From the IMG/VR virus record IMGVR_UViG_3300045256_000753, positions 37,638-101,637 of that record: a stretch of 64,000 bases of DNA. One strand, written 5' to 3'. Positions 27,930 to 58,460 of the stretch are shown here, piece by piece. Under the pieces are notes generated by a model that saw nothing but the letters and a program-made list of their open reading frames with translations, was not told the origin of the DNA and made no database searches. Origin of the DNA: a virus. How positions within the stretch are numbered: the first letter of the stretch is position 1; the number at the start of each line of letters is the position of its first letter. A program made the position numbers and the translations under genes.

Positions 27930-27947
27930 GGCTTACCCCTTCTCCCC

Positions 27948-28784
27948 TCAGACCTTTGCGCTCGCGAACATGGCGTGAAGGTGTGACGACTTCTCCCCGA
28001 GCTTCGAGAGCGCGGTCTTGGCTTCCGGCTCCTTGAACTTGGGGTGGCTGACGATGAGGTTCACGTTGCTCGCGATCTTGTGCAGATCGCCCTTCGCGCG
28101 GGCAACGTCGAATTTCTTGCCGGCGAGAACGAGCTGGTCGATCTTCTCCTCGGTCATGGTGACCTGGGCGAGGATCGCGTTCGCCATCTTGGCGTGCTCG
28201 TCCGAAGCCGTCATCGAGCGGGCACTCTGGCCGCTCGGGAGCTTCTCCGGGAGTCCGTAGTAGGACGAATTCTGGCTCTGGTTGCCGTAGACCGAGGGAC
28301 GACGCAGCCAGGCAACGAGATCGTTGAGGCGATCGATGTCGTCCTTCATCGACTGGGCCGAGATCGAGCCCGCACCAGCCTCTTTTGCGTGCTGCTGGAG
28401 GTTGGCGATCTGAGCCTCGATGCGAGCCACCTGGTTCGCAATCGCATCCTTCGTGAACTGTTCCGCGTCAGCCATGGTCCTGCCTTGCCTGTGTGAAGGG
28501 GTTCGATTTGACGGGAGAATAAGTGGAATAGAGCGACCAGACGACCACCTGGCTCGGTGGGGCTTGAGAAGCTCCCACATTCGCTCCAGATCGACCGTCA
28601 ACATCGATTCCCCCTCGGCCAAAAAGGTGTCCAGCGTCTGTTTTGCGGACCTGGACCCCACCGCCAGCTCGGTCACAAACTTGAGGACCGAGACGGACCC
28701 GAGCATGTACTTGACCCCATCGGGGGTCCGTACCCAATCGCTAAGCCCATCCGTACCAACGGTGACGAGCGCCTTTTGGGCCAT
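27948..28784 (-). CDS. Hypothetical protein (278 aa), possible internal start at MADAEQ
   Basis: Clean ORF; helical C-terminal half; GCAGGACC precedes an internal ATG. Confidence 0.65.
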   Translation of the reverse strand: MAQKALVTVGTDGLSDWVRTPDGVKYMLGSVSVLKFVTELAVGSRSAKQTLDTFLAEGESMLTVDLERMWELLKPHRARWSSGRSIPLILPSNRTPSHRQGRTMADAEQFTKDAIANQVARIEAQIANLQQHAKEAGAGSISAQSMKDDIDRLNDLVAWLRRPSVYGNQSQNSSYYGLPEKLPSGQSARSMTASDEHAKMANAILAQVTMTEEKIDQLVLAGKKFDVARAKGDLHKIASNVNLIVSHPKFKEPEAKTALSKLGEKSSHLHAMFASAKV

Positions 28785-28808
28785 CGCCTACGGAGGCACA
28801 CGAAAGGA

Positions 28809-29645
28809 TTACACGCGGACGAGCACCTGGATCAGGTGGCTGCTCAAGATGGTCGTGCCGTCCTCCGGATACAGCCAAAGGCCATTCGTTTTCCAGCCGG
28901 GAAGCTCCCCCATGGCGGTTTCCATCTCGTTCAGGATCTTTGCCGCCATCTCCAAACGGAACGGCACATGGGGCCCCTTCCGCCCGATCAAGACATTTTG
29001 GCGCCCGTCGATGACGGGCCCAAAGAGAGCCCCACGGAGGTAGCCCCTACGGAAGAGGCTCTCCCACCCATCTTCGAACGAGCCCTTCGTCTCGGCAACA
29101 ACGAAGCCCTGACTCCCTGCATCGATCAACCACGGCTCGGGGGGTTCCTGGCCAAGGTGAGGAAGTTGGCCCGTCTCGATATAGTCCTTGATGAAGTCCA
29201 CGCAATTTTCCAACCGAGAATCGATCTCGGATTGGACAAGGCCGTTGGGAAATTGGGTCCGCAGGAATTTGAGGAGGCGTGACAGCTCCGGATCAACGTG
29301 AGCGTGCCCAATGATCCCTCGTCGGTGCACGAGATCGGTCGCGGCAACGAAAGCTGCCGTTGCCGGCATGTCGATGAAGCGCCTGTTGCTCGCCAACACG
29401 ATCGCCACGAGAGTGTCCACGTCCCGAATGCCTTTCGTCGCGAACACCGGCGGCATGGGCCGTCCCTGAATCAGATCGTCGAAGAAGCTTGTGAGGGCGC
29501 CTGGGTCTGCCCAACCGAACTCCTCACCGTGATGCTCGTAGACGTAGAGCGATGAGTCGCCCGTTTGTGCCCTTGAGGCACCCGTCTCGAAAGAGATCGC
29601 GTTCGGAACCACCCCGGATAGAGAATCATCGAGGATGATCTGCAT
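28809..29645 (-). CDS. DHH-phosphoesterase-like protein (divergent)
   Basis: YEHHG and IRDVDTLVA motifs, plus a C-terminal LNEME...GW pattern seen in DHH-like proteins. Confidence 0.45.
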   Translation of the reverse strand: MQIILDDSLSGVVPNAISFETGASRAQTGDSSLYVYEHHGEEFGWADPGALTSFFDDLIQGRPMPPVFATKGIRDVDTLVAIVLASNRRFIDMPATAAFVAATDLVHRRGIIGHAHVDPELSRLLKFLRTQFPNGLVQSEIDSRLENCVDFIKDYIETGQLPHLGQEPPEPWLIDAGSQGFVVAETKGSFEDGWESLFRRGYLRGALFGPVIDGRQNVLIGRKGPHVPFRLEMAAKILNEMETAMGELPGWKTNGLWLYPEDGTTILSSHLIQVLVRV

Positions 29646-29653
29646 GAGGGTGC

Positions 29654-31111
29654 TTACACCCGTGCCCTATGGACGTGAGGTCGTGGGAAGCTAGCGAGGT
29701 ATTCGGGGTGGATGCGAACGAGACGATTTTTGGTGTCCTCCCACGGAAGAACAGCCAAGTCCGATGGGGCTCCTCGGTGGTCTTGAGCCGCAACGTATGC
29801 TGCGAAGTTATCCCAGACAATGCGGGGGATTGGGATTGTTCCGTTCTCGTACCCCCGGATTACGGAGAGGGGTGTATCGAACAGGAGCGCCAGATCCTCC
29901 GGGTCCAATTGCACAGCTTGCCGTAGGAAGACCCATGTTTCCGGCGTAATCTGGCCCCAAGAGATCACGATGCTGGCAGCACGGAGCCTGGCGAGTTTCT
30001 TGTTCGTGTCTGCGAAGTACGTCTGCCCGCGTCGAGTTTTGACTCCGGGGATCAAGGCAACGAAGGTCGTGCCCGTATTCTCCATGGGGATGAAAAAGTC
30101 GAAGAAGCCCTTCGTTCCACGCGGCAGATCGTTAACGGTTGCGTAGAGTCGTGGCGCGGGCGTTTCGGCGATGTCGATCGCATCGCTTACGCGTATGTTG
30201 TAGGTGAAGCTTCCGCTGATCGCAACGTCGTCTGTGACCGAGACGGCATCCGAGATGAAGTAATTCCCGGAAAAGCTCTCAACACGAACGACGTCGGTGA
30301 CCCCCAGCGTGTCCGTGTTCCGACGAATGAAGTCCACCTGACGAGAACCGTCGTCGGTGGCGTTCATACTGTCTGTCAGGGCCCGACTATTGTCCGTGGA
30401 TGTCCGGAGTGCGTCCGTCGCGGAAAGGGCGTCTGTCGATGTGCGGTTGAACGTAGTGCTTCGGCTGACACTATCGAGGATCGTTGCGGTGTTCGCATCG
30501 GTCCTGGAGAAATGGGCCGTTCGCTGTGTCGAGTCCGTGACGGTGGCAGTATCTTGCTGCGGTCGGTTGAATTCCCTACCTGCGACGGCGCTGTCGGTGA
30601 CCGTCGCTGAATCAGTTGCACTTCGAGCGTACACTGCCGAAGTAAGAGTGTTGTCCGAAACGTCGAGATCTTCAGTGACCGAGATCTCGATACGCCCAGC
30701 AATTTGAATTGTGAGCGAATCCGTAATCGTGGCGCTGTCCGTTACCTTCTTGGCGTACTGCGCCGATAGGGCGAGGGCATCGGTAACAGACGGGCTGTCC
30801 GAAAGCTTCCGGTTGTACCCCAACGATGTCTTTGGGGTGTCGCTGACCGAAAAGCTGTCCGATGTGCTTCGGTTGAATTGCGAAGAGATCTTGGTGGTGT
30901 CCGTGAACGACGCGCTGTCCGTCGCCGCCCGGCTGTTTTGTGCGGCGATCTTGGTCGAATCCGTAACGGCTACGCTGTCCGATGCGAGCCGGTTGGCTTG
31001 CAATGATCGGGTCGTAGTGTCCGTAACAGAGACCGAATCGCTCAGAGAAACGCTATACGCTATCCCGAGCGCGAGATCTTGATTGAATAGGATCCAGACG
31101 CCACCGGGCAT
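29654..31111 (-). CDS. 20-aa Ser/Thr/Asp repeat protein fused to an MqsA-like HTH-XRE domain
   Basis: Roughly 14 repeats of R..(S/T)DS..VTD; C-terminal FLRQAVQLDPEDLALLFDTPLSVIRGYENG is HTH-XRE-like. Confidence 0.7.
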   Translation of the reverse strand: MPGGVWILFNQDLALGIAYSVSLSDSVSVTDTTTRSLQANRLASDSVAVTDSTKIAAQNSRAATDSASFTDTTKISSQFNRSTSDSFSVSDTPKTSLGYNRKLSDSPSVTDALALSAQYAKKVTDSATITDSLTIQIAGRIEISVTEDLDVSDNTLTSAVYARSATDSATVTDSAVAGREFNRPQQDTATVTDSTQRTAHFSRTDANTATILDSVSRSTTFNRTSTDALSATDALRTSTDNSRALTDSMNATDDGSRQVDFIRRNTDTLGVTDVVRVESFSGNYFISDAVSVTDDVAISGSFTYNIRVSDAIDIAETPAPRLYATVNDLPRGTKGFFDFFIPMENTGTTFVALIPGVKTRRGQTYFADTNKKLARLRAASIVISWGQITPETWVFLRQAVQLDPEDLALLFDTPLSVIRGYENGTIPIPRIVWDNFAAYVAAQDHRGAPSDLAVLPWEDTKNRLVRIHPEYLASFPRPHVHRARV

Positions 31112-31193
31112 GGTCTAGCCTAACCTTCGACCTGTAGGCCGTCGAAGTTTCCCGGATGAGTTGTGGCGATCTTGGGCACGACTTCCTATCCCC

Positions 31194-33566
31194 TCATTCG
31201 AAGTCATCAAACCAAATGAAGAAGCGCGTGGAATTGTGGGTCGTGATCTGAGATACGAAGTCCGAAGGCGTTGAGATGCTTTCGGAAATCGTACGCGACC
31301 CAATGTACCGGCGAACAACAGCATCGTTGATGCTGATGGCTTCACTAATCGTGCGGCTGCCAGAGAATGCACGAGTGATCGCATCAGAAATGCTGACCGA
31401 TTCCGAGATCGTTCGGCTCTGCACGAGAGCCCGAGCGATCGAATCGCTGGGTTGGGTGATGCTCTCACTGACAACCCGTGCTCCTGCGAACGCACGAGCT
31501 ACGGAGTCTGAAGGCGTCGTGATGCTCTCAGAGATCGAACGCGCCGAGACCACATGCCGCGCAATGGCGTCGGTGGGGGTCGTAACGCTCTCCGAGATGT
31601 TTCGGAATCCCGTGAACTGTCTGGAGATCGCGTCGCTGATCGAGATGGATTCGGCGAGCGCACGAGAGCCCGCGAAGGCTCGTGAGATTGCGTCGCTGAT
31701 AGAGACGCTCTCGGAAATGGTGCGCGCATTGACCGCTCGACGGGTGACCGCATCGCTAACGGAAACGGACTCTGCGATTGTTCGGGCACCAGCAAAGGCT
31801 CTCGCGACCGAATCGCTGACGGACACGGATTCGGAGACCGTCCGGGCGCCCGCAAAGGCTCGCGCAATTGCGTCTGAGGGTTGAGTGATGCTGTCGGAGA
31901 TTGTCCGAAGGAGCTGGGCCGTCCGGGCAATTGCATCGGAGGGCTGGGTAATGGATTCAGAAACGGTCCTCGCTCCAGCGAAGGCACGGGCAACTGCATC
32001 CGAGATGCTGACGGTTTCGCTTAGCGCACGTGACCCGGCAAAGGCACGCGTAAGGGCATCGGAGGGTTGCGTGATCGATTCAGCAACCGAACGGAAATCG
32101 GCGACCGCACGAGCAACGACATCACTCGGTTGTGTGATGGAGTCGGAGATGCTTCGAGAGCCGGCAAAGGCACGGGTGATGGCGTCCGAGATGCTGATGC
32201 TCTCGCTAATTGCTCGTATTGCTGCATACACACGAGCAACGGAATCGGTCGGTTGGGTGATCGAGTCGGAGATCGTTCGGTTCGCGGCAACGACCCGAAC
32301 GAGCGTATCACTAGGCTGCGTGATGGAGTCGGAGATGGCGCGAGAGGCAGCGATTGTTCGAGCAACGGCGTCCGAGACGCTGACGCTTTCACTGAGTGCA
32401 CGAGAGCCAGCAAAGGCACGCGTAAGGGCATCGGAGGGTTGCGTGATCGAGTCGGAGATCGTTCGGTTCGCGGCATCGACCCGAGCGATGGCATCACTCG
32501 GCTGCGTGATGGAGTCAGAGATCGTTCGACGCCCGACGAATTGCCGGGAGATAGCATCCGAGATCGATATCGATTCGGAAATGGCGCGTGCTCCGACGAA
32601 GACACGAGACACGCCTGTGACAGCAGAGGGGACGACAGCGAGGAGGGTCGTCGCCCAGTCGTCGTTGCCCGTGGAGGTCGCTTGGTAATTGCCGGTCGCG
32701 CCTTGGGAGGCGTTGGCGATCTTGCCGAGATTCCAGATCGTTCCGAATGACGCGAAGGTATTGTCTTGGCCAGGCCCCATGAAAGTAAACGATGGGAAGT
32801 CCGACGAGATCGTGGCGTTGTTGTCTCCCAGCCAGAACAAGAAAAGCCACTCGTTGGCCTTCGTGGTCGTGAGGCCGTTCGCTGTCAATGTGCTGGAGAA
32901 GCCGCTGTTTGTCGTTGGTGCTCCGGCGCCTGAGTCGATTGGACTGACCGAATCAGCCCCACGCAAACAAACACACGCGATACCAACTCCAAAAGTGCTC
33001 GTCGGAGATGTGCTGAATGTGTAGTTCGCAGCCGGGGAGCCGGAGAGCTGAAGGATGTAGACTGCCGAAGAGATCGCGTCATCGCCCCCGCTCGGGTGAT
33101 CGATGCGTGTACCGGAAACAAGTGTCGCGCCAGTTGGGGGCGTGACGGTCGCACCAGTTTGGTCATACCAGGCGACGAAGAAGACGAGAAGATCGCCGGA
33201 CTGAGCGCCCGCAGGAGTGCTTACGACACCTGGGTTTGTCGCCGTCGCAGCCGAAGTCGTCATCGACCCGACTTGCGTGATGGTCGAAGAGCCGCTGCCA
33301 TCCGTAGGAGTCGTAATCGACTCCGTGATGGTGCGCGCATAGTGAGCGATCCTCGTGATGGCATCGCTGATGGAAATCGATTCGCTGATGGTCCGTGCAC
33401 CAACGAACCGACGTGCGATGGCATCCGAGATCGAGATCGACTCGGTAATCGTTCGGGCGCCGACAAATACTCGTGAGCTTACCGAATCGGACGGAGTGGT
33501 GATGGACTCCGGGATCGATCTTGTGTAAGACTGCGCGCCACCTAGAAGAGCGAGTAGGAGCGACAT
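31194..33566 (-). CDS. 20/21-aa repeat fibre protein with an inserted globular beta domain (790 aa)
   Basis: About 26 repeats of RTISESISISDAITRAFAGS / RTISDSITQPSDAIARxxxxx; ~220-aa insert (GAQSGDLLVFFV...YTFS). Confidence 0.8.
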   Translation of the reverse strand: MSLLLALLGGAQSYTRSIPESITTPSDSVSSRVFVGARTITESISISDAIARRFVGARTISESISISDAITRIAHYARTITESITTPTDGSGSSTITQVGSMTTSAATATNPGVVSTPAGAQSGDLLVFFVAWYDQTGATVTPPTGATLVSGTRIDHPSGGDDAISSAVYILQLSGSPAANYTFSTSPTSTFGVGIACVCLRGADSVSPIDSGAGAPTTNSGFSSTLTANGLTTTKANEWLFLFWLGDNNATISSDFPSFTFMGPGQDNTFASFGTIWNLGKIANASQGATGNYQATSTGNDDWATTLLAVVPSAVTGVSRVFVGARAISESISISDAISRQFVGRRTISDSITQPSDAIARVDAANRTISDSITQPSDALTRAFAGSRALSESVSVSDAVARTIAASRAISDSITQPSDTLVRVVAANRTISDSITQPTDSVARVYAAIRAISESISISDAITRAFAGSRSISDSITQPSDVVARAVADFRSVAESITQPSDALTRAFAGSRALSETVSISDAVARAFAGARTVSESITQPSDAIARTAQLLRTISDSITQPSDAIARAFAGARTVSESVSVSDSVARAFAGARTIAESVSVSDAVTRRAVNARTISESVSISDAISRAFAGSRALAESISISDAISRQFTGFRNISESVTTPTDAIARHVVSARSISESITTPSDSVARAFAGARVVSESITQPSDSIARALVQSRTISESVSISDAITRAFSGSRTISEAISINDAVVRRYIGSRTISESISTPSDFVSQITTHNSTRFFIWFDDFE

Positions 33567-33579
33567 GCTCCCTCACTCC

Positions 33580-35049
33580 CTAAATCCAGTAGCCGTCGAA
33601 CGTGACCAGGAAGGTGATGACGCCAGAGGTAGTCACCGTTCCGACGTTCTTGGCACAGATCGCAATGAATTCACCCGGGTTGACTGGGATCGGCGAGTTG
33701 AAAGCCATGTATTGGCCGCTGGCCGAACCAATCGTACCAACGGCGGCGGCAGCGGCGAAAAGCTCCATGCCGATTGGGATGCGGCGTGGTGCCTTTGCTG
33801 TGTTGGTAACGAAGCTTCCGGATTCGGCCGTCGCCATCGAGACAGCCGTGTGGCCGTATGCGAGAGAGTAGAAGTATTGAACGGGACCACCAACGAGGAC
33901 GGTGGTCACCATGCTTTGAATGCGGACGCCCGTGCACATGAATGTGCGAGGTGTCTGCGTAGCGCTGCCTGCCGGGTTCTGGTAGCTGCAAACGATCCCG
34001 TCCGTGTTCGCCGCCAACGTCGGCAACGTCGCAAATTGACCCCCAAGACCGGTACCCAGGGCGGCGGTGGTATTGGTCATCGCTGCACCCGCGCCAGGAG
34101 CAAGCGAGTTCGTGTAGAGAGCAAGCGAACCCATGGTGCCGCCCGAAAGACCTTGACCAGCTCCTTTCTGGAGGGCCATCTGGTGCGAGTAGGGTGCAGC
34201 GAGCTGGAGGGACCGCTGGATTACGCTACAGTCGCTCCATTTGAGCTGCATCTGCGGCGAACCAGAAACCGTGTTGGAGTTGCGGTACTGAACCGCAATG
34301 GGCAACGCCGTGGTCGCAAACGGCTCGCTCTGCGCTGCCGGAGTTGCGAGCGTCCCGTACAGCACGGGACCGGTACCCATGTCGATCCAGAACTCCGTGC
34401 TTCCTTCACCAACGATGATGATGAAGGCGGATACAGTGTTGGGCGTGATCGTGGCCAGCAGGACGCTAGTAGTGGTTTCCACGCCGTTGTAATTGATGAC
34501 GCCGATCAAACCGGCCGACGAATAACGGTAGTAGATACCATCCGTGGGTGCTGCAACGGGCGAAGTAGCAGGCAAGAACAGTCCCGCCTCCCAGACCTCG
34601 TTTGTCAATGCGGCAGCAGTGATTTGAAGCGACATCGACACACGAAGCGACGCGCCGCCGAGGAGCTGAAAGTAGCGCCAGGAGGAGAGTGCACAGCCCG
34701 TTGCCGTCGTGGCCGTCGAGTTCGCGTTGAACAAGACCGAACCGCTCGATTGAGTACACGTCATCGTGGTGAAGACGTGCTTCCAGACACCCGTGTCCTG
34801 CGCGGTGGCGTTGAACGTGTAGTCGAAAATCGGCGTGTCGAGGCCGACTGCCAGGCGTCGCTGGGAGGTGATCCAGGGACTACGACGCAGAGAGGAGCCC
34901 GTGATGGTCCCAGGATCTTGCTCAATGAGCGCTAGCGCGTAGCCGGCCTGCGCCGCCGTTGTGGGCAGATTCGCCTTGAGGTTGTTGTTTGCATCAACCT
35001 CTGCGACGTTCCCGCTAGTATTTCCTTCAATGCGGATGCCCGACATCAC
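33580..35049 (-). CDS. Putative fibre/receptor-binding protein with lectin-like core (489 aa)
   Basis: Beta-rich; WEAGLF...DGIYYRY...EFWID pattern resembling concanavalin-like phage domains. Confidence 0.55.
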   Translation of the reverse strand: MMSGIRIEGNTSGNVAEVDANNNLKANLPTTAAQAGYALALIEQDPGTITGSSLRRSPWITSQRRLAVGLDTPIFDYTFNATAQDTGVWKHVFTTMTCTQSSGSVLFNANSTATTATGCALSSWRYFQLLGGASLRVSMSLQITAAALTNEVWEAGLFLPATSPVAAPTDGIYYRYSSAGLIGVINYNGVETTTSVLLATITPNTVSAFIIIVGEGSTEFWIDMGTGPVLYGTLATPAAQSEPFATTALPIAVQYRNSNTVSGSPQMQLKWSDCSVIQRSLQLAAPYSHQMALQKGAGQGLSGGTMGSLALYTNSLAPGAGAAMTNTTAALGTGLGGQFATLPTLAANTDGIVCSYQNPAGSATQTPRTFMCTGVRIQSMVTTVLVGGPVQYFYSLAYGHTAVSMATAESGSFVTNTAKAPRRIPIGMELFAAAAAVGTIGSASGQYMAFNSPIPVNPGEFIAICAKNVGTVTTSGVITFLVTFDGYWI

Positions 35050-35056
35050 TAACCTC

Positions 35057-35347
35057 TCAGTTCCAAACCCAACGAACTTGGAATGTGCTCGTCAACCGCC
35101 ACGAACTCTCCGCAAAAATAGTGAAACCCGTACCAGCAACAACGCTTCCGCACGTCAGCTTGATCGGCACGAGCTTGTGCTCTTCTGCATTGTGACCGGT
35201 AGCTCCGGACACGGTGGAATCTGCCATCATGAAAGCCTCGGCAAATGAGCCCGATAGAATGCCCGTTTGTCCGGTCACCACCACGCTCGTGACGTTGGTT
35301 CCCGGAGCGGCACCGAAATCGATGGTGGCAGTTCCTGTTGCTCCCAT
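35057..35347 (-). CDS. Small fibre-associated protein (96 aa)
   Basis: GTATIDFG...AGTGFTIFA...FQVRWVW beta pattern; tight packing with neighbours. Confidence 0.6.
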   Translation of the reverse strand: MGATGTATIDFGAAPGTNVTSVVVTGQTGILSGSFAEAFMMADSTVSGATGHNAEEHKLVPIKLTCGSVVAGTGFTIFAESSWRLTSTFQVRWVWN

Positions 35348-35351
35348 GGCT

Positions 35352-36185
35352 TCAGATGGTGATCGTGACGGTGTTTTGGAGCGTGTCGCCGCTCACGAGA
35401 GTGGGCGGGCTGGGCTCGGCAGATTCGAACGGCATTACGCCGCCGCCCGTGGTGTTGCATGCACCGAAGACGGCCTCGTTGTTGATCGTCTGGGTACCCG
35501 TGGCGGTCCAGAGGTGAACGAGCGAGTACGTCGAGGCTGCCGCCGTGTGGGAGTACGTACCGACTGCACGTGTGAACCCGTTCGTCGTGAGTTCGCCAGC
35601 CAAGGTCGTATCGGACGTTGCGGGCGTGAACACGTTCGACGTGACCGCGAGCCACGATGCCGGGTTTTGCCCCGGAAGGATCACGTACGCGCCGGTCGAG
35701 TTTGGGGTGGATCCAGCGGCGCCCGTGGTGGACGTCGGATCGTACCACTGATCGACCGTGAGCACGGTCGCCGTGTTCGACACGATGACGCCGTAAACCG
35801 TGGCTCCGGTTCCGGAGGAGTTACGGGACGCGACAACGATCGATCCCGCCAACCCCTGACCCGCCGTGGGGAATGCTGCACCGGAGTTGGTGAGCGAGGT
35901 TGCCGAGGTTGCCGTGGCGTTGCCCGTGATGGTCGCGAACGCCATCGAGGGGCCTTGTCCCATCGCCTTTGCGAGCCAGTCGAACGCGTTCGTGTAACCG
36001 GTCGCGGTCGTGGTCGTGAGATTGTGGCGCCAGGTCTTGCGACGCTTCTTGCCGTTCTTGGGGAAGAGGGTCGTCAGCCAGCACGAGTACATGTCGGACG
36101 GTTTGGCTTTGCGCGATGCCGCTCGGCTCGCCTGAGCCACCGTACGAGTTCGTTTCTGGGCCTCTTGACGAAGATGCGCTTTCAT
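35352..36185 (-). CDS. Tail-collar/fibre subunit-like protein with basic N-terminus
   Basis: WLAVT...PATSDTTLAGEL...INNEAVF...TLVSGDTLQNTVTI; related to 40174-40668. Confidence 0.6.
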   Translation of the reverse strand: MKAHLRQEAQKRTRTVAQASRAASRKAKPSDMYSCWLTTLFPKNGKKRRKTWRHNLTTTTATGYTNAFDWLAKAMGQGPSMAFATITGNATATSATSLTNSGAAFPTAGQGLAGSIVVASRNSSGTGATVYGVIVSNTATVLTVDQWYDPTSTTGAAGSTPNSTGAYVILPGQNPASWLAVTSNVFTPATSDTTLAGELTTNGFTRAVGTYSHTAAASTYSLVHLWTATGTQTINNEAVFGACNTTGGGVMPFESAEPSPPTLVSGDTLQNTVTITI

Positions 36186-36685
36186 TTCGACTTCCCCTTC
36201 ACCTTGAAGTGCGTGTGGAGATGATCGATGTGATCCTTGTCCGTGGCGGGCTCCATGTAGGCCTCCACGTGGGCATCGACATCTTCTGCCGCGATGTTTT
36301 CGGCGGCAACGTGTGGTGCAAGTGCTGCACGGAAGAGAGCCTCGTCGGGCCCGTCATCGTGAACATCGACCTTGGAGACCCACGAACGATGGGCGTGATG
36401 GGGCATCACGTGCTCCGAGAGGTAGAACGCAATTGCCTGTTTCCGGGTCAATTCGCGCCCGCCTTCCGGACGAGTCTTGTCGTGAATGATCTTGGCGATC
36501 ACCTGCGACTCGGGGATTTGGATCTCGGTGTGCGTGTCCATCTCTTTAGTCACACGCATGAGCCAGCCACCCCCACGACCGGCAGGTTTGACCTTTCCGG
36601 AGGCGATGTCGGTCTGAGTCACAACGACATCCTCGGGGACCGGATCCCAATCGTAAAATTTCGAGTGATGTACAACGATCCGCAT
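36182..36685 (-). CDS. Hypothetical protein (167 aa)
   Basis: Clean ORF overlapping the next start. Confidence 0.6.
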   Translation of the reverse strand: MRIVVHHSKFYDWDPVPEDVVVTQTDIASGKVKPAGRGGGWLMRVTKEMDTHTEIQIPESQVIAKIIHDKTRPEGGRELTRKQAIAFYLSEHVMPHHAHRSWVSKVDVHDDGPDEALFRAALAPHVAAENIAAEDVDAHVEAYMEPATDKDHIDHLHTHFKVKGKSK

Positions 36686-36710
36686 AACAGCCTCTTTCTA
36701 GCGAGTGTGA

Positions 36711-37379
36711 CTAGACCTCTTCATATTCAATCGTGGCATTAACAGTTTCTGAACCGCTCAAGTTCAGGGAGAGCGCCTCGTTGACGGCGCCTTGGATGTA
36801 TCGCCGGCCTGCACCAATGTTCCGCCCAAAGAGCGACCCCGCGCTGAGGCTCAACTTGAAAATGAGCGCGCCGGATCCGAACTTCAGTGCCGCTGTAACA
36901 GCCGCCGAATTCGAGGCGTCGGCGTTGAGGGCGAGATAGTGCAACCGAATGCTTTTGCCCGATGCAGGGGCAACCAATTGGGTATCCCCAGACGTGCTCG
37001 CAGTCACGGACAGCACGTTGTAGGTATCGAGCGGCAGAGAATCTCGGCAGACCAACCCAATGCTGACATCCCCAAAAGAGGCGCCCGCACCGGTCACTGT
37101 CCAGGACACCAAGAGTGCCGAGCTGGTAACATCGGTTAGTTTCACCGATCCCGAGCCCGCACTGGTGATCAACGACGTGGAGGCTGACCGTCCCGTCGTG
37201 GTGGGCAGATCATTGGGATCGAGTTCGGAGATGGTGATTTGGAGCTGCGGCGACGTGCCGGATACGGTCCCATCGACACGCCAGAAGAGGACCGTTTCGC
37301 GGCTCAATCCGCCATCGCACACTTGCGAGCCGGAGGCCGTGACAGTTGTCGAACGGAGGACTTGAATTAGGTTGCCCAT
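36711..37379 (-). CDS. Two-domain beta-sandwich virion protein (222 aa)
   Basis: Start reassigned to MGNLIQ just past the upstream stop; LVAPASGKSIRLHYL motif. Confidence 0.6.
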   Translation of the reverse strand: MGNLIQVLRSTTVTASGSQVCDGGLSRETVLFWRVDGTVSGTSPQLQITISELDPNDLPTTTGRSASTSLITSAGSGSVKLTDVTSSALLVSWTVTGAGASFGDVSIGLVCRDSLPLDTYNVLSVTASTSGDTQLVAPASGKSIRLHYLALNADASNSAAVTAALKFGSGALIFKLSLSAGSLFGRNIGAGRRYIQGAVNEALSLNLSGSETVNATIEYEEV

Positions 37380-37380
37380 C

Positions 37381-39519
37381 TCACAGCTCCTCCTGCCAAT
37401 TGATGGCCCCAAACATCGTAAGAGCGCCGTTCGCAGGAACGGGTTGGATCGCAAGAACTGCGTATGTCGAGGTCCCGTCGATCAATGATCCGAGGCGAAC
37501 TGAGCTTGCCAATTCGGCGTTGACGGCTGCCGACTTGTTTGTGGTCGCATACTCGCTGTAGACTTGGGTAGCCCCAGCATTGACAGTCAAGAGATTCGAG
37601 GCGGCCGGAAGCGCCACCTCCACGGCTGAATTGGAGACTGGCGAGAATGAGAGGGCAGCCCCTGCGAAGGTGAAATCAGTCGGGCGCCCGATGTAAACCG
37701 CCAGGCGGAAGGAGGCGGCCGTCGTCGTGCTGATCACCGATGCACTCTCCAAGGTGATGTCGGCCATCTGCTTCGTCGATTGCAGGCGCAACACCAGGAG
37801 CGGATAGATGTTCGTGTCGTTTCCTGTTGTAATGCTGGTGGCTCCTCGGTCGGCCGAGACCGTGATGCCGGTCGCGTTCTGCCCTCCCTCGGTGATGACG
37901 GTCGTGCACACGTGGACGATGGAGCCCGCCGCACCGGTCCCGGAGTTCGAGATCTCGTAACGTAGCGGAAGGTTCGGATTCGAGATGTAGACCGAGGTCA
38001 CCACGTTCGCGTGGTTCGACTGGTGCGCCACAATGATTTTTCCGCCGATGATGAAGCCGAAGCGCACACGACCGGTGCCAAGCCACTGGTAATCGATGAA
38101 GAAGATCTGCTGCTTTGTGATGTCGAGCGTGAGTCCGCTTGCACCAGTGCCATCGAGTTTATCGACGTTCCAGTTTGCCTGCGTCGTAACGGTATCGACG
38201 CCGCCCTTTCGTTCGACAAACGAAACGGTCGTTCCGGACACCTGCCAGAAGAGTCCGTTGTTCCCATCGAACTGGCCCATCCGGCGAGTGTTTCCCGCCT
38301 GACCCCCTTCGGGCGCCAGCGTTCCCGTCATAACGATCAACTGAGATTTGCCGGGTTCGTAATTGAACCTACGAATCGTCTGGCGAACGCGTGTCCCTGC
38401 TGTCGTGTTCGAGACCGCGAGCGTCGAAGATGCGTTCGCATTGCTGTACGTCGAGGACGTTCCGGACCCGGACGTTTGAGCATCGTCCCAGTAGAAGGAC
38501 TGTGCGTCGATGAGCTGTTTGGAATCGAAGAGCGTTTGGGGGTTGGAGACTCGAAGTCGGCCGGACGCGTCCAGATTGGCGGAATCTGAGTAGCTGACGG
38601 CACCGGAGATCGTGCCCGAAACTGCGACCGTACCCGAGACAGGAATGGCCGATTGATCGTTGGCAATGACGACGGGTGCGGAACCCGCCATGGCCTTCTG
38701 GCCAAGCGTTCCAAGACGAGCAGTAATCGTTGCGTCAGCGGCTCTTGTTGCCAGCGTCGCTTCTGTCGCCGCTCCCGTGGGCAACGCACTTGCTTTGACT
38801 GCAACATCCAGTGCCTGGTGATCGGCATCGATCGACGTGCTGGTAACGTCGGCGGCCGTCGTAGCCCCTTTGGCACCACCGCGTGCAATCGATTTCTGAG
38901 TCCCATCCGTCTGATGGGTTGCGAGGTTGTCCAGATCCGTCTTCGCTGCGGAGAGGGTTGCGTCTTTCGCGAGCCCCGTCTCGACAGCGGGGATCATATT
39001 CGAGACTGCCACCGTCCCGCTCACGGGCTGGATGACACCAGACCCTTCCACCTTGATGGCGTCGTCGTTGCCGAAGGCGACGGGATGGAAACTGCCGTCT
39101 GGTTTTTGGGCATGAAGGATCGACTTCACGACCTCAGTCGGTTCGTTGCTGTCGATCGGTTGAGAAAGAAAGCGCGACAGACGCGTAGACGTCTGTCGGT
39201 GAAACATCGTCGTGAGACGGAACGCCGTTTGGGCTGTGCCGCCATTCACGTACCGCACACGGAAGTACGGAAGGATGGCGCGAAGAATCGTCGGGACGAG
39301 TGTTGGACCCGTAAGCACCAACGGAACCGAAACGTCCCAGTTGGTACCGTCCGGGCTGAACTCGAAGTAGAGCGTTCCAGGGGCGTTGCTAGGAGAGCCT
39401 GCAACGTTGATGTCGATCTCTTGGAACGACAACATCGTGTCGGCCGCGCCCGTGAACATCTCATTGGCGCCAAGCGCGTTGGTCGTCGTATTGTTTTTGC
39501 TGACGAAGAGCTGCGTCAT
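37381..39519 (-). CDS. Fibre/spike protein with lectin-like C-terminal domain (712 aa)
   Basis: DASGRLRVSNPQTLFDSK...YEPGKSQL...IDYQWLGTGRVRFG is a widespread phage virion domain; QPVSGTVAV stalk motifs. Confidence 0.7.
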   Translation of the reverse strand: MTQLFVSKNNTTTNALGANEMFTGAADTMLSFQEIDINVAGSPSNAPGTLYFEFSPDGTNWDVSVPLVLTGPTLVPTILRAILPYFRVRYVNGGTAQTAFRLTTMFHRQTSTRLSRFLSQPIDSNEPTEVVKSILHAQKPDGSFHPVAFGNDDAIKVEGSGVIQPVSGTVAVSNMIPAVETGLAKDATLSAAKTDLDNLATHQTDGTQKSIARGGAKGATTAADVTSTSIDADHQALDVAVKASALPTGAATEATLATRAADATITARLGTLGQKAMAGSAPVVIANDQSAIPVSGTVAVSGTISGAVSYSDSANLDASGRLRVSNPQTLFDSKQLIDAQSFYWDDAQTSGSGTSSTYSNANASSTLAVSNTTAGTRVRQTIRRFNYEPGKSQLIVMTGTLAPEGGQAGNTRRMGQFDGNNGLFWQVSGTTVSFVERKGGVDTVTTQANWNVDKLDGTGASGLTLDITKQQIFFIDYQWLGTGRVRFGFIIGGKIIVAHQSNHANVVTSVYISNPNLPLRYEISNSGTGAAGSIVHVCTTVITEGGQNATGITVSADRGATSITTGNDTNIYPLLVLRLQSTKQMADITLESASVISTTTAASFRLAVYIGRPTDFTFAGAALSFSPVSNSAVEVALPAASNLLTVNAGATQVYSEYATTNKSAAVNAELASSVRLGSLIDGTSTYAVLAIQPVPANGALTMFGAINWQEEL

Positions 39520-39959
39520 GTCAACTCCGTCACGCGAAGACTGCCAGTTGCGGTTTCCCAGATCGCGCGCACCTCACCGGAGAAGTGAAAGGGAAGCTGC
39601 CATCCCGTGTGCGCTGCAACGATGACGGTGCAGTCTGCCAACGTGACCGCGACGGTTCCCAATCCGATGTGGACTGCGGAATCGGAATCGTTGTAAAAGA
39701 AGGCTCCGCGCCTTCCCGCATTCGCAGCCAAAACGAGCGTGTCTGAGATCGCTGCGGCGATGCTGGTCCGTGCTGCCGTAGACGCATAGTCCGTGATCGT
39801 CGGGAACGGATTTGTTGCCGTGACCGGACCGCCGTTTGTGCCGTGCGGACCCGTGTAGATCTTGCTGACGGGAAGTTTGACTCCGCCGCCGACATCCTCG
39901 GTCGCGATGACATCGCCGCCGGCTACCGTTGTGGCATTGAGTGTTGTGTTATCGGCCAC
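39516..39959 (-). CDS. Small beta-sandwich virion protein (147 aa)
   Basis: LAANAGRRGAFFYNDS...GEVRAIW...LRVTEL pattern. Confidence 0.6.
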   Translation of the reverse strand: MADNTTLNATTVAGGDVIATEDVGGGVKLPVSKIYTGPHGTNGGPVTATNPFPTITDYASTAARTSIAAAISDTLVLAANAGRRGAFFYNDSDSAVHIGLGTVAVTLADCTVIVAAHTGWQLPFHFSGEVRAIWETATGSLRVTELT

Positions 39960-39967
39960 GACTCACC

Positions 39968-40177
39968 TTAATTCGTGACCGATTGCGGCACTTCCTCGGG
40001 CGACTGCACGTTCCGGCACAGAGGCATTGCGCAAATGCGTTGGGGGTCGCCGTTCGCGTCCGGCACGTGCTCCTTCGTCTCGCGTCCGCACTTGACACAC
40101 GGATGCCTTGCGGCGGTCGGCGTCTGGGAGACGCCCGCCTCGGCTCGATCCGTGGCGGAGACGCGATCGTTGCTCAT
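39968..40177 (-). CDS. Small zinc-finger protein (69 aa)
   Basis: MSNDRV start overlaps the upstream TGA; CVKC...CAMPLC. Confidence 0.5.
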   Translation of the reverse strand: MSNDRVSATDRAEAGVSQTPTAARHPCVKCGRETKEHVPDANGDPQRICAMPLCRNVQSPEEVPQSVTN

Positions 40178-40668
40178 GTCACCCGTGCCGTGTAGGTGAT
40201 GCGGAGCTTGTCGGCTGTCGTCTTGTTGACCGCCGTGAAGGTGCTGCGAGACAGGATCGACCCACCAGGGCTCGTGTGCTGGTTGGCGAGAATGACCTCT
40301 TTGATGTTCGTCGCCGACTTCGTGCCCGGACCGCTGGGGTAGCTGATGATCCATTGCATCGAACGGGTGCCCGCGAGAAGGGACTTCGAGTCCACCGTCT
40401 TGAGGGTCCCGGTGATCGGTGTCGTCAGGTTCGTCTGTCCGGAGTTCGCCGCCTGAGAAGACGTCCCGATGCGCATGAAGTTCCACGACTTGCTGTTCAA
40501 GCCGGACGACATGCGCCAGATCTGACGCTTGCCCGTGTTGACGATGAGATTCGGACTCCGGCGATACTCGATGACCTCCGGGCCGTTCTTTCCGTCTCGG
40601 ATGACTTCGATCTCGAACCATCCGCCCATGTCATCGATGGTCTCTGTAACGGCCTTGGGCGCGCTCAT
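40174..40668 (-). CDS. Tail-collar/fibre subunit-like protein (164 aa)
   Basis: NLIVNTG...MRIGTS...QTNL...IKEVIL...SRSTFTAVNKT..DKLRITYT, a common phage structural family. Confidence 0.65.
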   Translation of the reverse strand: MSAPKAVTETIDDMGGWFEIEVIRDGKNGPEVIEYRRSPNLIVNTGKRQIWRMSSGLNSKSWNFMRIGTSSQAANSGQTNLTTPITGTLKTVDSKSLLAGTRSMQWIISYPSGPGTKSATNIKEVILANQHTSPGGSILSRSTFTAVNKTTADKLRITYTARVT

Positions 40669-42452
40669 GTCGATATCTCCTGTTTGATCAATGCAATGTT
40701 GTTGGTGGCCTCCTCTACAGCTTCTTTGGGAGAACCCTCAGGCAGAAGTTCAAGGACCCTTGTGGCCCAGTGCAGAGCGCGCGGTGCGTCCCCCAAGGCG
40801 GAGTAACACATCGCCAACCGTTGAGCTGGGATGTAGCTGTAGAAACTCAGATCGATCCACCAAAGCGTGAATGGGGGGTGCCCGATCATGGTGGACGCAT
40901 AGGTATAAAACTGGAGAGCTTCCTCGTACTTCTCCGCGTCAAAGGCGAGATCCCCAAGCCACACCCAATGGTCCGTGCGACTCCAATCGTCCCGCACACA
41001 GTCGAGTAGAATCTCTCGTGCTTCCGCGTACTCTCCGCGACCCGACAACATCTTCGCCAAGATGAGTCGCGTCTGGTAACGCATCGGGCCATTCTCGCGA
41101 TGGACCGCCAAGAACTCTTTGAGATACTTAATGGCGCGGTTCTCGTCATACTCGCGCCACTCGCTCCCAAGATACCAAAGGCTCAGGTGGCTGTTGTTCG
41201 CCATCCAGTCTTCGAGGAGCGTCTTCCGATTCTGAATTTTTCGCTGACCCTTGCGAGCCAGTTCTCGTTCATGGTCGCGTTCGTGCAATGTCTTCACTTG
41301 GGGAAGACGGATGACGTACGCCTTCTCCGGGAAATGGAGATCGTTGTGCGTGGCCCGCTGGAAGTAGATGGTGTCCGGCTGATTGCGGAACAACCACGGA
41401 TACCCCCACTGCTGGCCTTGTCCCGTGCGCAGCACGAATCCAACAGAGGCTTCCTTGGGTAGAAGCTCTCCAAGGCGCAGAAGCGTGTCTTTCCCCTGCC
41501 ACAGGCGCTCGTGGCCTTCCGTCATGAACACCCAGTCGCCCGAACAACGTCGGATGCACTGGTTGCGTGCATGCGAGAAGTGAAACCCGCCTTCGGGAAC
41601 CTCTTCTCCCGGGGGCCCGCGCAGCTCCGTGAGATCGAACACGATGTCCGCGTACTTCTCCGCGATCTCTCTCGTGTTGTCCGTCGTTCGCGGATCAATG
41701 CCGATGACGATCTCATCGGCGATACCCGAAAACGAAGCGAGGACGTTCTCGATGTCCTTGCCCTCGTCACGCACCGGCATCGTCATGCTCATCTTGAAGT
41801 TGTTCGGTTTTGGCAGGTTGCAGACTGCCAATAGGAAAGCCGGCTGCATCCTCGGGTCGGCTTTCGGTCCGAGCACCTCGACCCTGACGTCCGTGAAAAA
41901 TCTTTGCAGGTATCGCTTGAACTCGATGGCCGTGAACTTGCGCGTATGCTGCGGTTCTTCGTCGGGCCCGAGGCGATCGTTTGGAACCGAGAAGAACGCA
42001 CACGTGCACTTCGACGCGACGTTCATGAGCGTGTCTCGGGCGCGATCCGAGAGGTGCTCCAACGTTTCTGTCGAGACCATCACGAGAGGCCCGTCGTCTT
42101 CGCTACGGAGGAAGTCGAGCGGCAGAGGATCTTCGAGATTCACCTGGTGGGTTGTGAATCCGTTGCTCCTCGCTTGGGCGAGGGCTTCCGCACTGTGATC
42201 GAGGACTTCCGGAAAGCAGCAACCCTCATCACGAAGACGTGCTGCAAGAATTCCGACGCCGCCCCCAACATCGATCACACGAGCGTTCCGAGGAATCAGC
42301 TCGATGATGCGATCGTAGACCTCTTCGAGAGCACTCTTGCGCCAGCTCCCTGTGCCCTCGGCCGCCCAAAGACGATCCCACTCTGTTGAGGAGTTCGCGA
42401 TTCGCGCGGCTTCCTCAACATTCTGCGGGCGAAATGCGTCCGAGTTCATCAT
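40665..42452 (-). CDS. SAM methyltransferase - GT2 glycosyltransferase - TPR fusion
   Basis: VIDVGGGVG and ETLEHL (class I MTase); MPVRDE...DEIVIGID..TTDNT...FSHARN...GDWVF (GT2); helical TPR-like C-terminus. Confidence 0.85.
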   Translation of the reverse strand: MMNSDAFRPQNVEEAARIANSSTEWDRLWAAEGTGSWRKSALEEVYDRIIELIPRNARVIDVGGGVGILAARLRDEGCCFPEVLDHSAEALAQARSNGFTTHQVNLEDPLPLDFLRSEDDGPLVMVSTETLEHLSDRARDTLMNVASKCTCAFFSVPNDRLGPDEEPQHTRKFTAIEFKRYLQRFFTDVRVEVLGPKADPRMQPAFLLAVCNLPKPNNFKMSMTMPVRDEGKDIENVLASFSGIADEIVIGIDPRTTDNTREIAEKYADIVFDLTELRGPPGEEVPEGGFHFSHARNQCIRRCSGDWVFMTEGHERLWQGKDTLLRLGELLPKEASVGFVLRTGQGQQWGYPWLFRNQPDTIYFQRATHNDLHFPEKAYVIRLPQVKTLHERDHERELARKGQRKIQNRKTLLEDWMANNSHLSLWYLGSEWREYDENRAIKYLKEFLAVHRENGPMRYQTRLILAKMLSGRGEYAEAREILLDCVRDDWSRTDHWVWLGDLAFDAEKYEEALQFYTYASTMIGHPPFTLWWIDLSFYSYIPAQRLAMCYSALGDAPRALHWATRVLELLPEGSPKEAVEEATNNIALIKQEIST

Positions 42453-42619
42453 ATACAGTTACTTCTGTACTTGGCGCTCGGATAAGAGGATCCCCCACGA
42501 CCGGTGGAACTTGGCAGCGTCTTGACATTTACCGAGCGGAAAATTTCATTGGAATTCCAACTAAATGGACGTTCCAAATTGCCCCGTTGACAAGGACTTG
42601 ACCGTGCCTGTCGGTTAAA

Positions 42620-42652
42620 CGACAAGAGGCGCAAAAGCAGCGCCTCTTGTCG
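42620..42652 (-). terminator. Hairpin terminator after the sheath gene
   Basis: Perfect 13-bp stem CGACAAGAGGCGC/GCGCCTCTTGTCG with a 7-nt loop, followed by TTTAA on the minus strand. Confidence 0.75.
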
Positions 42653-42669
42653 GGTTCGGGTCAACGAAC

Positions 42670-55777: not shown

Positions 55778-56683
55778 TCAGGTGTCGTCACCCCATCCGT
55801 ACTTGCACTTGCGCTGCGTGATGTCGTGCGGATCGTGGGCCAAGACGGTATCAAGGACCCTGAACTGCCCGATCACTTCAATAATCGGCTCACCATAACT
55901 TCTTTGGTAGCGCCAGCGAACGGCCCAAAAGCAGCCCGGTTGGCCGCCTTCCCCTGCCGTCCCGGTGACGTAGTAGCGGCCGGTCGAGGCCCTGGCCGGC
56001 TTGTGGTCTTCCGGTCCCACGGGGAGGAGCACCCCTGTCGGGGCAGCCATCAACATCGTGTACCCGATGAAGACCGGATCGCGTCGATTGCCGAAACGGT
56101 CCTCAAGGAGGATCTCGATGTCTCCCTGTTGGAAGACGTCGCGCCAACGGAAGCTCGGCATCTTGCACGGGCCGTCATGGCCTCGGACATCCCTCTGGGT
56201 ACGGTTCTCGAAGCGAATCTTGTGGTGATGATGCCTATCTCGCCGATGGTGTTCGTGCCTCCACCGACACTGTTGGCAGACGCGCCAATCGCGTGATGGG
56301 TCGCACCCACGGAAGAATCTTCGGTGCACCTCTTCACACTCGTCGCACGGATGTCTTTCGCATGCGCACGCAGGATTGCACGGCGGCGTCGGGACTTTCA
56401 GAACCTCGACGAAAGCGGAGATCTCTCCTTGCCCGAAGATCTGTTCCGGGACCGACACCTGGAATCGGCCGCCGCCCGAGGCTTGCCCAAAAAGACCGAC
56501 TTCCCTGACCGGCGTTCCAGCCAAGATGCCGGCGCCAGTCGCGTGGCCGCTGAGTGTGATGAGGAGTCCGTCCGAGAGCGTACCAGCGCCCTGCGGTTGT
56601 GCAGAGAAGATGAGGACGCGATAGGGAGTCGCCGAGGCGGACCCGCCGCCTGCCGCATGACCGCTAAGATCGAAGAGGGTCAT
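55778..56683 (-). CDS. Virion protein: Gly repeats, Cys/His-rich insert, Ig-like domain
   Basis: LSGHA.G.G repeats; CNPACAC...HHHH; C-terminus similar to the N-terminus of 54092-54988. Confidence 0.6.
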   Translation of the reverse strand: MTLFDLSGHAAGGGSASATPYRVLIFSAQPQGAGTLSDGLLITLSGHATGAGILAGTPVREVGLFGQASGGGRFQVSVPEQIFGQGEISAFVEVLKVPTPPCNPACACERHPCDECEEVHRRFFRGCDPSRDWRVCQQCRWRHEHHRRDRHHHHKIRFENRTQRDVRGHDGPCKMPSFRWRDVFQQGDIEILLEDRFGNRRDPVFIGYTMLMAAPTGVLLPVGPEDHKPARASTGRYYVTGTAGEGGQPGCFWAVRWRYQRSYGEPIIEVIGQFRVLDTVLAHDPHDITQRKCKYGWGDDT

Positions 56684-56695
56684 GGAACCCTCCCA

Positions 56696-57079
56696 TCATG
56701 TCTCGGAGACGAGGAGCTGCCCTGTGGGGAATCGGACTTGATCGTTCGTCAAGACGGTTCGCGACGTGCTGAGGTTCGCGAAGTAGAGCAGGTTGCCGCC
56801 GCTCGGTTGATCGTGGAGAGCAAAGGCGACGACCGTTCCGTAATCCGCTGAAGCGACCGCAAAGTTCACATCCACGTTGTTCGAGCAAAGGCCGTTGACG
56901 GGGACCGTGAACGTGACTGCCTGCCGAGCGTACCCGCCGCCCGTGACTTCCGTTCCACCACCCCCAACGCCGGGCGACACCGTGTAGAGCGCCACGTAGA
57001 CGGTGACCGGAGGCGTGAACACCTGCTGGCGCAGAATGATGCCCAAGAAGGTGTTGTCGAGGTACGTGCTCTTCGGCAT
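56696..57079 (-). CDS. Small phage virion/fibre subunit, paralog A
   Basis: STYLDN...VYVALYT...GTEVTGGGYARQAVTF...GGNLLY, a widespread phage structural family. Confidence 0.7.
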   Translation of the reverse strand: MPKSTYLDNTFLGIILRQQVFTPPVTVYVALYTVSPGVGGGGTEVTGGGYARQAVTFTVPVNGLCSNNVDVNFAVASADYGTVVAFALHDQPSGGNLLYFANLSTSRTVLTNDQVRFPTGQLLVSET

Positions 57080-57086
57080 GGTGGAC

Positions 57087-57485
57087 TCAGCAACGCGGTT
57101 TGATAAATGAAGCACTGAGGCTCGAATCGATGAGCGGCGCCTCGCTCTTCACGTCGTACCCAAGAGCCACGGTCTGCTGGCCAGCCGCGTAGTTGAGCAC
57201 GAGGCGCCAGAAGCCAACCCCGCTGGGTCGCCATCGGACGCTGTAGTAGCCCGGGGCCCCGGCGATCTCGTTGAAGTAAACGCTCCCCGAGACGACTTGT
57301 GCGTCCGTGATCCCTTGCCCATTGATGAGCGGCCAGCTTTGAAGCTGGTTGTTGAAGAAGACCTTGAGGGAGAGTTGCGGAACGGTGATGCCGACGATGC
57401 GGGTGAACACGTCCCCCGCAAGAAAATCAACCTGGTCGTCGATTTCCTCGTTGTTCTGAACAAGTCGCCAAAGCGACGTGAGCAT
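57087..57485 (-). CDS. Ig-like hypothetical virion protein (132 aa)
   Basis: EIAGAPGYYSVRWRP..VGFWRL pattern. Confidence 0.6.
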   Translation of the reverse strand: MLTSLWRLVQNNEEIDDQVDFLAGDVFTRIVGITVPQLSLKVFFNNQLQSWPLINGQGITDAQVVSGSVYFNEIAGAPGYYSVRWRPSGVGFWRLVLNYAAGQQTVALGYDVKSEAPLIDSSLSASFIKPRC

Positions 57486-57667: not shown

Positions 57668-57668
57668 G

Positions 57669-57965: not shown

Positions 57966-57984
57966 GGGGACTTACCTCCCCCGC

Positions 57985-58386
57985 TCACTGCTCGGTGACG
58001 CTGAGGGCCGTCGCTGCGAACTGGAGGGTGTCGCCCGTCGAGACCACCTTCGAAACCGCGAGGTTACCGAAGTAGAGGACGTGAGCCGTCCCACCGAGGG
58101 TGAGGTCGTCCATGATCGCCACGGCGACGATCGTGTACGGACCCGCAGCCGCACCGGCGCCGAAGAAGGTCAGCGTGCCGGAGTTCGACGTCGCACCTGC
58201 AACAGGTGCGCTGAACGTCGCGGCGAGACGCGCGTAGTTGGCGTCCACGACCTCCGTGCCGCCCGTCGTGGCGGTCGGTGCAACCGTGAAGAGCGCCGCG
58301 TAAACCGTCGCCGGGGACGAATACGCAACGTTCCGAAGAACGGCGGAGAGAAAGGCGTTTGCGAGGGTCTGAGACTTGGCGGCCAT
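57985..58386 (-). CDS. Small phage virion/fibre subunit, paralog B
   Basis: VLRNVAYSSPATVYAALFT...GGTEV...YAR; clearly paralogous to 56696-57079. Confidence 0.7.
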   Translation of the reverse strand: MAAKSQTLANAFLSAVLRNVAYSSPATVYAALFTVAPTATTGGTEVVDANYARLAATFSAPVAGATSNSGTLTFFGAGAAAGPYTIVAVAIMDDLTLGGTAHVLYFGNLAVSKVVSTGDTLQFAATALSVTEQ

Positions 58387-58460
58387 GGACGTAAATCCTC
58401 CGAATAGGTCAACCCAAACGAACCATAAGAAGATTCGTTCGGAGCCCTACAGCCCGAAGA

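Follow-up and report, generated by a model that had tools for sequence, protein, structure and literature searches.

Results

The repeat proteins A and B and their locus

We consider here two repeat proteins of a virus, A (790 amino acids (aa), 31194..33566) and B (485 aa, 29654..31111), together with the small proteins that are encoded near them. Both genes lie in a stretch of 64,000 nucleotides (nt), called the window below, which is the final 64 kb of a 101.6-kb IMG/VR record (IMGVR_UViG_3300045256_000753, positions 37,638 to 101,637 of that record). CheckV puts the completeness of the record at 21%, and it is therefore a fragment of a giant phage; the DNA of the window also occurs in hot-spring and microbial-mat metagenomes. 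Every gene of the cassette region is on the minus strand. In the order of transcription, the region starts with a 1433-aa tail sheath protein (phrog_2839), a methyltransferase-GT2-TPR enzyme and a 164-aa protein that we call F2, continues with proteins of 147, 712, 247, 167, 277, 96 and 489 aa, and ends with A, B and more tail genes.

The layout of A comprises an N-terminal block of four repeats (aa 16-94, 33285..33521, with a self-identity of 0.424 at lag 20), an inserted non-repeat domain of 231 aa (aa 95-325, 32592..33284) and a C-terminal block of 23 repeats (aa 326-777, 31236..32591). Its 27 units are a mixture of 20-mers of the form S-E-S-[IV]-S-[IV]-S-D and 21-mers of the form S-[ED]-S-I-T-[QT]-P-[ST]-D with a proline at the turn, and are referred to as Glu/Pro-type repeats. 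B carries about 15 Asp-type 20-mers (30182-31063) of the form [ST]-D-S-x-[ST]-[VF]-T-D ... R, and a C-terminal non-repeat domain of 175 aa (29657-30181). An earlier description, made from the letters and the open reading frames alone (the sequence-only reading), had proposed a strict 20/21-aa period with about 26 and 14 repeats in the two proteins, and had noted that the 790-aa protein mixes two repeat types and holds one insert. The period is confirmed, with 27 units in A and about 15 in B, and the repeat layout bears out the mixture and the insert as well.

The 20/21-aa repeats in A and B are real. The self-identity of A is 0.309 at lag 21, where the maximum over 500 shuffles is 0.175, and that of B is 0.297 at lag 20, with a maximum of 0.167 over 500 shuffles; in the same test the insert of A and the C-terminal domain of B show no period. 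Periods of 60 and 186 nt are found at the DNA level (Tandem Repeats Finder, TRF). The two proteins are paralogues (E 4e-14; BLASTP 3e-10).

A consensus over 164 units from relatives reads S-D-[TS]-[VI]-S-[VL]-[TS]-D-S-x3-x-[LV]-[ED]-[YF]-x-R-[ST]-x, and 98% of these units have Asp at position 2, 92% have Asp at position 8 and 76% have Arg at position 18. The units of A are in the same register as this consensus, with either acid, Glu or Asp, at position 2. The first strand of the unit presents Ile/Val and an acid on one side, and on the other side only Ser/Thr. In the AlphaFold 2 (AF2) monomer model of A, obtained with a 35-sequence alignment, each unit has two strands at a predicted local distance difference test score (pLDDT) of about 60, and the full-length pLDDT is 48.9.

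The repeat is described by no Pfam, PHROG or PDB sequence family. A Foldseek search with the AF2 model of A returns nothing at E <= 0.001, a phmmer search of A and B against PDB sequences gives just chance matches to designed helical repeats, and no solved trimeric shaft matches A or B by sequence. In a Pfam and PHROGs scan of all ten cassette proteins, A and B give merely weak or composition-driven matches (DUF6651, by summed score only), and no mention of DUF6651 was found in the literature. There are at least 124 homologues of A, with varied globular domains, and the look-alike clusters are 81-94% viral. The repeat arrays in these proteins are joined to globular domains at either end or in mid-chain, the domains being Laminin_G_3, Spherulin4, DUF2341, 3-keto-disaccharide-hydrolase-like, Mu F and head-tail attachment domains; lectin-like and beta-helix types are included in the set. 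When A, a B-type relative and F2 are compared by tblastn with 50,697 phage records, no match results, and viral-contig scans with A, the alignment A1 and P0019 yield no usable match. A general N-terminal motif of the repeat proteins (MALFD, MALLD, MTLFD, MSLLLA or MALVLLD) was tried and rejected, because it is present in only some of them.

The insert of A is a mobile module of about 225 aa that is found in 147 representative clusters, frequently as stand-alone proteins of about 225-250 aa. No Pfam match exists among 40 of its members, no sequence relative in the PDB was found, and the AF2 confidence is poor across it. A receptor-binding role, which the sequence-only reading had given to the insert, is plausible and draws no support from these searches. 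The C-terminal domain of B has no Pfam match and no relative among the proteins and loci fetched here.

Two partner families for the repeat proteins

We use the word rope for a protein such as A or B in its candidate role as a chain along which small proteins would dock, and the word bead for such a docked protein. The conserved partner of the Asp-type ropes, and a candidate for a bead or adaptor, is F2 (164 aa, 40174..40668), which matches the tail fibre families phrog_5417 and phrog_4176. The methyltransferase-GT2-TPR enzyme (40665..42452, assigned by Pfam) is directly upstream of F2 with an overlap of 4 nt. With the homologues of F2, we retrieve 24 loci from other large phages. In 22 of these loci the F2 homologue directly follows the enzyme gene, and, again in 22 of the 24, one to six members of the A/B family are found within about 7 kb after F2. 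In 19 of the latter 22 loci these members have 5-42 motif-defined repeats, in proteins that range from 182 to 2162 aa, and the genes that separate F2 from the rope are not conserved across the 24 loci. The mean column identity of F2 is 53%. We also looked for longer proteins that contain F2 as a fused part and saw none; this negative is weak evidence.

The AF2 model of F2 has a pLDDT of 68, and its ten best structural neighbours are exclusively phage tail, neck or baseplate parts. The best of them is a domain of the 953-aa tail protein of HFTV1 (Z 8.2); gp80 of GP4 Fiber I is also one of the ten, at Z 5.8, the phi812 arm protein and A511 gp105 are at Z of about 5.5, and a Bxb1 tail-tip chain is a weak neighbour at Z 4.7. 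The two small proteins of the cassette had earlier been termed collar-like. This loosely fits the 164-aa protein, the fold neighbours of which are tail, neck and baseplate accessory proteins of phages, but not the 277-aa protein.

The 277-aa protein (35352..36185) is the highly conserved partner of the Glu/Pro-type ropes and a candidate bead, as judged from its homologues and from the loci that bear ropes. It has at least 621 homologues, the best 120 of which are 70-85% identical. Using these homologues, 15 viral loci are retrieved. A protein of the A/B family is present in 12 of them, nine of these 12 having 14-52 repeats, and the order of the genes is a homologue of the 167-aa protein, the 277-aa homologue, zero to six other genes and then the large repeat protein. 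The 167-aa protein (36182..36685) is acidic and His-rich, its homologue is directly upstream of the 277-aa homologue in 12 of the 15 loci, and it has no Pfam or PHROGs match; it could be an assembly factor. Five A-like proteins have longest contigs of just the same lengths as those of five 277-like proteins, which by this measure places them on the same contigs.

Some further features of the 277-aa family are recorded here. The identity of 70-85% is kept across phages with otherwise unrelated flanking genes, and the N-terminal stretch of about 50 residues is basic and varies between members. For one member, the record name is that of a bacterial metagenome-assembled genome (Jatrophihabitantaceae), and the locus L030 is classed as a provirus. 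Three loci (L036, L038 and L040) have three paralogues of about 320 aa and three small conserved proteins between the 277-aa homologue and the rope. The methyltransferase-GT2-TPR enzyme is absent within 10 kb in the 15 loci of the family.

The sequence-only reading had taken the C-terminal part of the 277-aa protein to be a relative of the 164-aa protein. This kinship is not recovered: BLASTP gives no match between them, and hhalign, with a 21-sequence profile compared either to the single protein or to a 25-sequence profile, gives a probability of 0.1%.

Repeat type and partner family go together

The next question is whether the type of the repeat, which we call its dialect, is related to the partner that is encoded with it. 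The ropes in the F2 loci have a 20-aa period and Asp at position 2 in 98% of their units, while the ropes in the 277-type loci have a 21-aa period and, at position 2, Glu in 210 units versus Asp in 31. The two partner families exclude each other in the 39 other phage records, with the 277-aa family in none of the 24 F2 records and F2 in none of the 15 records of the 277-aa family; this count takes in six F2 records and four 277-family records that are at least 90% complete. The phage of the window is unusual in that it carries both partners and both dialects. Of all the signs that partner and repeat may interact, this agreement between repeat type and partner family is the strongest in our data. 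A mere anchor at one end of a fibre would have no need of such a match.

Gp80 genes and chain-like fibres

Chain-like fibres have been solved in the podophages GP4, VP1 and A1002, in which dimers of Gp80-type proteins of 140-171 aa sit on a rope by means of augmented beta-sheets (PMC13730344). Fiber I of GP4 (PDB accession code: 8JOU) has five gp80 dimers on a separately encoded rope (PMC13730344). In A1002, the gp40/gp41 dimers are on the nozzle-rope gp39, the fiber-dock region of which has about 268 aa and takes up 11 dimers at about 24 aa per site, and an Ig-like domain ends the dock (PMC13730344).

A six-frame search of the window's own genome with PF23140 finds two Gp80-family genes, both above the curated cut-off. 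The first encodes a fibre monomer of 139 aa (56696..57115, 135.6 bits, E 9e-41) that is 36% identical to GP4 gp80, and the second a monomer of 133 aa (57985..58386, 102 bits). The two genes are 16 kb away from the cassette. They belong to a minus-strand module (55778-58736) that encodes a 91-aa protein, the 133-aa Gp80, a 132-aa protein, the 139-aa Gp80 and a 301-aa protein, and this module is syntenic with a block directly upstream of the enzyme-F2 pair in five relatives.

In these five relatives (loci L006, L008, L010, L012 and L013), the order is Gp80, F14 (129 aa), a small protein of the A/B family, the enzyme and F2. The small A/B-family proteins beside Gp80 have 182-295 aa with three to five motif-defined units, and B matches them by BLASTP at E values of 1e-8 to 1e-6. 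By its synteny with this series of Gp80, F14 and small repeat protein, the 301-aa protein of the window (55778..56683) is in the rope position after Gp80; its N-terminus has four to five weak Gly-rich units of about 20 aa, and the periodicity is weak. Among isolates, the gene that directly follows Gp80 in GP4, Bcep22 and PVJ1 encodes a protein whose self-identity peaks at lag 20. Stenotrophomonas phage Bhz51 has no rope-like gene directly after its Gp80 homologue.

A language-model (ESM) search with a member of the 277-aa family gives the Gp80 cluster as a lead with a score of 0.88. The hhalign alignments of F2 and the 277-aa protein to Gp80 fall in the expected registers, among them one for each half of the 277-aa protein, at E values of only 0.06-0.24; the presence of these registers in both halves hints that the protein may be a tandem bead. 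Three lines, namely period, position of the genes and membership of the repeat family, agree in favouring a link between A and B and the chain-like fibres.

A model of the fibres

Combining this information, we propose, with a probability of roughly 55%, that A and B are the rope proteins of beads-on-a-rope fibres of the virion and thus a variant of the known chain-like fibre. Each 20/21-aa unit would form a short beta-hairpin that serves as one docking site, and copies of a small beta-sandwich protein, probably dimers, would bind to each site by beta-sheet augmentation. With one docking site per unit, the number of repeats would set the length of the fibre. By analogy with A1002 (about 27 Å per site), the fibres would be about 70 nm long for A and about 40 nm for B. 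The likeliest beads would be the 277-aa protein on the Glu/Pro-type 21-mers of A and the 164-aa protein on the Asp-type 20-mers of B, with the two Gp80 proteins of the window as substitutes for these or as further beads. The chain would also include, in line, the insert of A and the C-terminal domain of B. In this model we infer the binding, its stoichiometry, the assignment of beads to ropes and the site of attachment to the virion. The sequence-only reading had likewise put forward a fibre templated by the repeat proteins. In its favour, the same architecture has been solved in GP4, VP1 and A1002 (PMC13730344) and several genomic links lead to it, but the two subunits proposed at that time have no detectable sequence kinship to each other or to Gp80.

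A number of observations weigh against the model. In the six-frame search, PF23140 matches neither F2 nor the 277-aa protein at E <= 10, no Gp80 match comes from Pfam scans of 21 and 25 members of the F2 and 277-aa families, and hhalign of F2 and the 277-aa protein against the Gp80 profile stays at E 0.06-0.24 with a probability below 1%. The best structural match of F2 is the HFTV1 tail-protein domain (Z 8.2) and not gp80; the superposition of the F2 model (pLDDT 68) on gp80 of GP4 Fiber I by VIA-align has Z 5.8 and a root-mean-square deviation of 4.5 Å over 112 of 136 residues, a score within the range of chance arrangements. In GP4, Bcep22 and PVJ1, the repeats encoded beside Gp80 are rich in Gly or Lys and do not have the form S-D-x-V-x-V-T-D, and the 325-aa neighbour of gp80 in GP4 is not among the PDB sequences and could not be confirmed as the rope. 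The F2 gene and the 277-aa gene each have a start that overlaps the stop of the gene before, an arrangement not expected where a subunit is made in great abundance. A homo-oligomeric beta structure could equally be stabilised by the Arg, Glu and Asp that are conserved in each unit. Finally, the hairpins that AF2 predicts at a pLDDT of about 60 fit a rope that would be ordered only when bound, and such low confidence fits an obligate trimer equally well.

A wider form of the model is a more tentative matter, and we hold it to be distinctly less probable than the rope role itself. According to it, one virion would carry several orthogonal fibres by way of a matching code, in which each dialect would recruit only its own bead family. 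Both bead families would be undescribed ones, the 277-aa protein may be a covalent Gp80-like dimer, globular domains would be placed in line, and an enzyme would be dedicated to one of the systems. The methyltransferase-GT2-TPR protein may be a modifier of fibres, and it is linked to one bead type alone.

Alternative explanations

The alternative that survives best, which we nevertheless regard as unlikely, is that A and B are self-sufficient homo-oligomeric (probably trimeric) beta shafts, with F2 and the 277-aa protein as single-copy adaptors or anchors. Conserved partners next to widely varying fibres are the usual pattern of an adaptor plus a fibre, and the homologues join their repeats to lectin-like, beta-helix and Spherulin4 domains just as ordinary fibres do. 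The fold neighbours of F2 include baseplate arm or adaptor proteins (phi812, A511 gp105, the HFTV1 hub), low AF2 confidence on the repeats of a monomer is typical of obligate oligomers, and charged residues are invariant in every unit. Shafts of this kind, however, leave three observations unexplained: the tracking of the partner family by the dialect (period and anchor residue), the small repeat-family members in the rope position beside a true Gp80, and the period shared with the proteins beside Gp80 in the isolates. Nor is any solved trimeric shaft matched by sequence.

Quite improbable is the idea of A and B as flexible Ser/Thr-rich "hairs" that are glycosylated by the methyltransferase-GT2-TPR enzyme, with F2 as the substrate-presenting partner of the enzyme and not a bead: F2 comes directly after the enzyme gene in 22 of 24 loci, with an overlap in the window, and the first strand of each unit has one face made up wholly of Ser/Thr, but the 277-family loci have ropes and no such enzyme within 10 kb, so that glycosylation is not a general property of the family, and the strict period with its conserved hydrophobic and charged positions favours a defined fold or interface over a mucin-like coil, while the idea is compatible with the rope role of A and B and does not exclude it.

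Comparison with known fibres

The classical homotrimeric shafts include the triple beta-spirals of adenovirus and reovirus and the repeats of the T4 long fibre. They resemble A and B in their short strand-turn-strand repeats, alternating hydrophobic residues, Pro or Gly at the turn and terminal binding domains. To our knowledge, such shafts need no second protein along their length, and no match of sequence or fold between them and A or B was found. The sequence-only reading had expected its fibre to differ from the classic trimeric ones, which is true of the beads-on-a-rope arrangement, but the design itself had already been described.

With the solved chain-like fibres, A and B have in common a periodic rope at about 20-24 aa per site and small proteins of about 130-170 aa encoded beside it, and Gp80-family genes are present in the genome of the window. 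The in-line placement of a globular domain and the dock region has its counterpart in the Ig-like domain of A1002, and two bead types per phage are found in A1002 and, as candidates, in the window. The differences are several. The window is from a giant contractile-tailed phage, whereas the solved cases are podophages. The numbers of candidate sites are 15 and 27 in the window and up to 52 in relatives, versus 5 and 11 sites in the solved fibres. The repeat sequence also differs: that of the window, S-[DE]-x-[VI]-x-[VI]-[ST]-D ... R, has no likeness to those encoded beside Gp80 in GP4 and Bcep22. By sequence, neither of the candidate beads, F2 and the 277-aa protein, belongs to PF23140. Lastly, a methyltransferase-GT2-TPR enzyme is attached to one of the two modules of the window.

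Two other fibres offer a partial likeness. The neck fibre of the Anabaena myophage A-1(L) consists of gp82, about 14 gp81 trimers and gp80 (PMC10966104). It is, like the fibres of our model, a beaded fibre on a contractile-tailed phage that is encoded apart from the main tail genes, but its bead trimers stack head to tail without a rope or template (PMC10966104), while the system of the window is defined by its long repeat proteins. The tail wings of Bxb1 (PDB accession code: 9d93) are related to this discussion through the Bxb1 tail-tip chain, the weak fold neighbour of F2 at Z 4.7.

To date, rope-and-bead fibres have been solved in three podophages only, and these carry 5-11 bead pairs. Should A and B prove to be ropes, the design would extend to giant contractile-tailed phages, with 27 sites in the window and more than 50 in relatives, and with bead families that go unrecognised by current domain libraries. 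In that case, the strict pairing of dialect and partner would be a directly testable specificity rule for how the length and the identity of a fibre are encoded, and could be used to build fibres of defined length. Both the repeat family (at least 124 members) and the 277-aa family (at least 621) are large and lack annotation, so that many genes would gain one from a single experiment.

Other genes of the cassette

In the region 27216-46971 of the window, an accessory cassette of about 13 kb parts the sheath gene from the next tail genes. The sheath protein (1433 aa) has large insertions that precede a conserved C-terminal part of 360 aa, and the relative L005, unlike the window, has its sheath gene downstream of the cassette. 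A 237-aa "tube-like" protein (27216-27929) has no family or PDB match. The 96-aa and 489-aa proteins (33580..35347) sit between the 277-aa gene and A, have no Pfam or PHROGs family match, and are conserved directly upstream of the rope solely in the locus L007.

The genes for the proteins of 147, 712 and 247 aa (36711..39959) are variable fillers that are not conserved in related loci. The 712-aa protein (37381-39519) is a virion structural protein by its match to phrog_1645 (E 1e-82). This match covers the C-terminal 430 aa, which also match, at 29-42% identity, structural proteins from the virions of marine cyanomyoviruses and Salicola phage SCTP-2.

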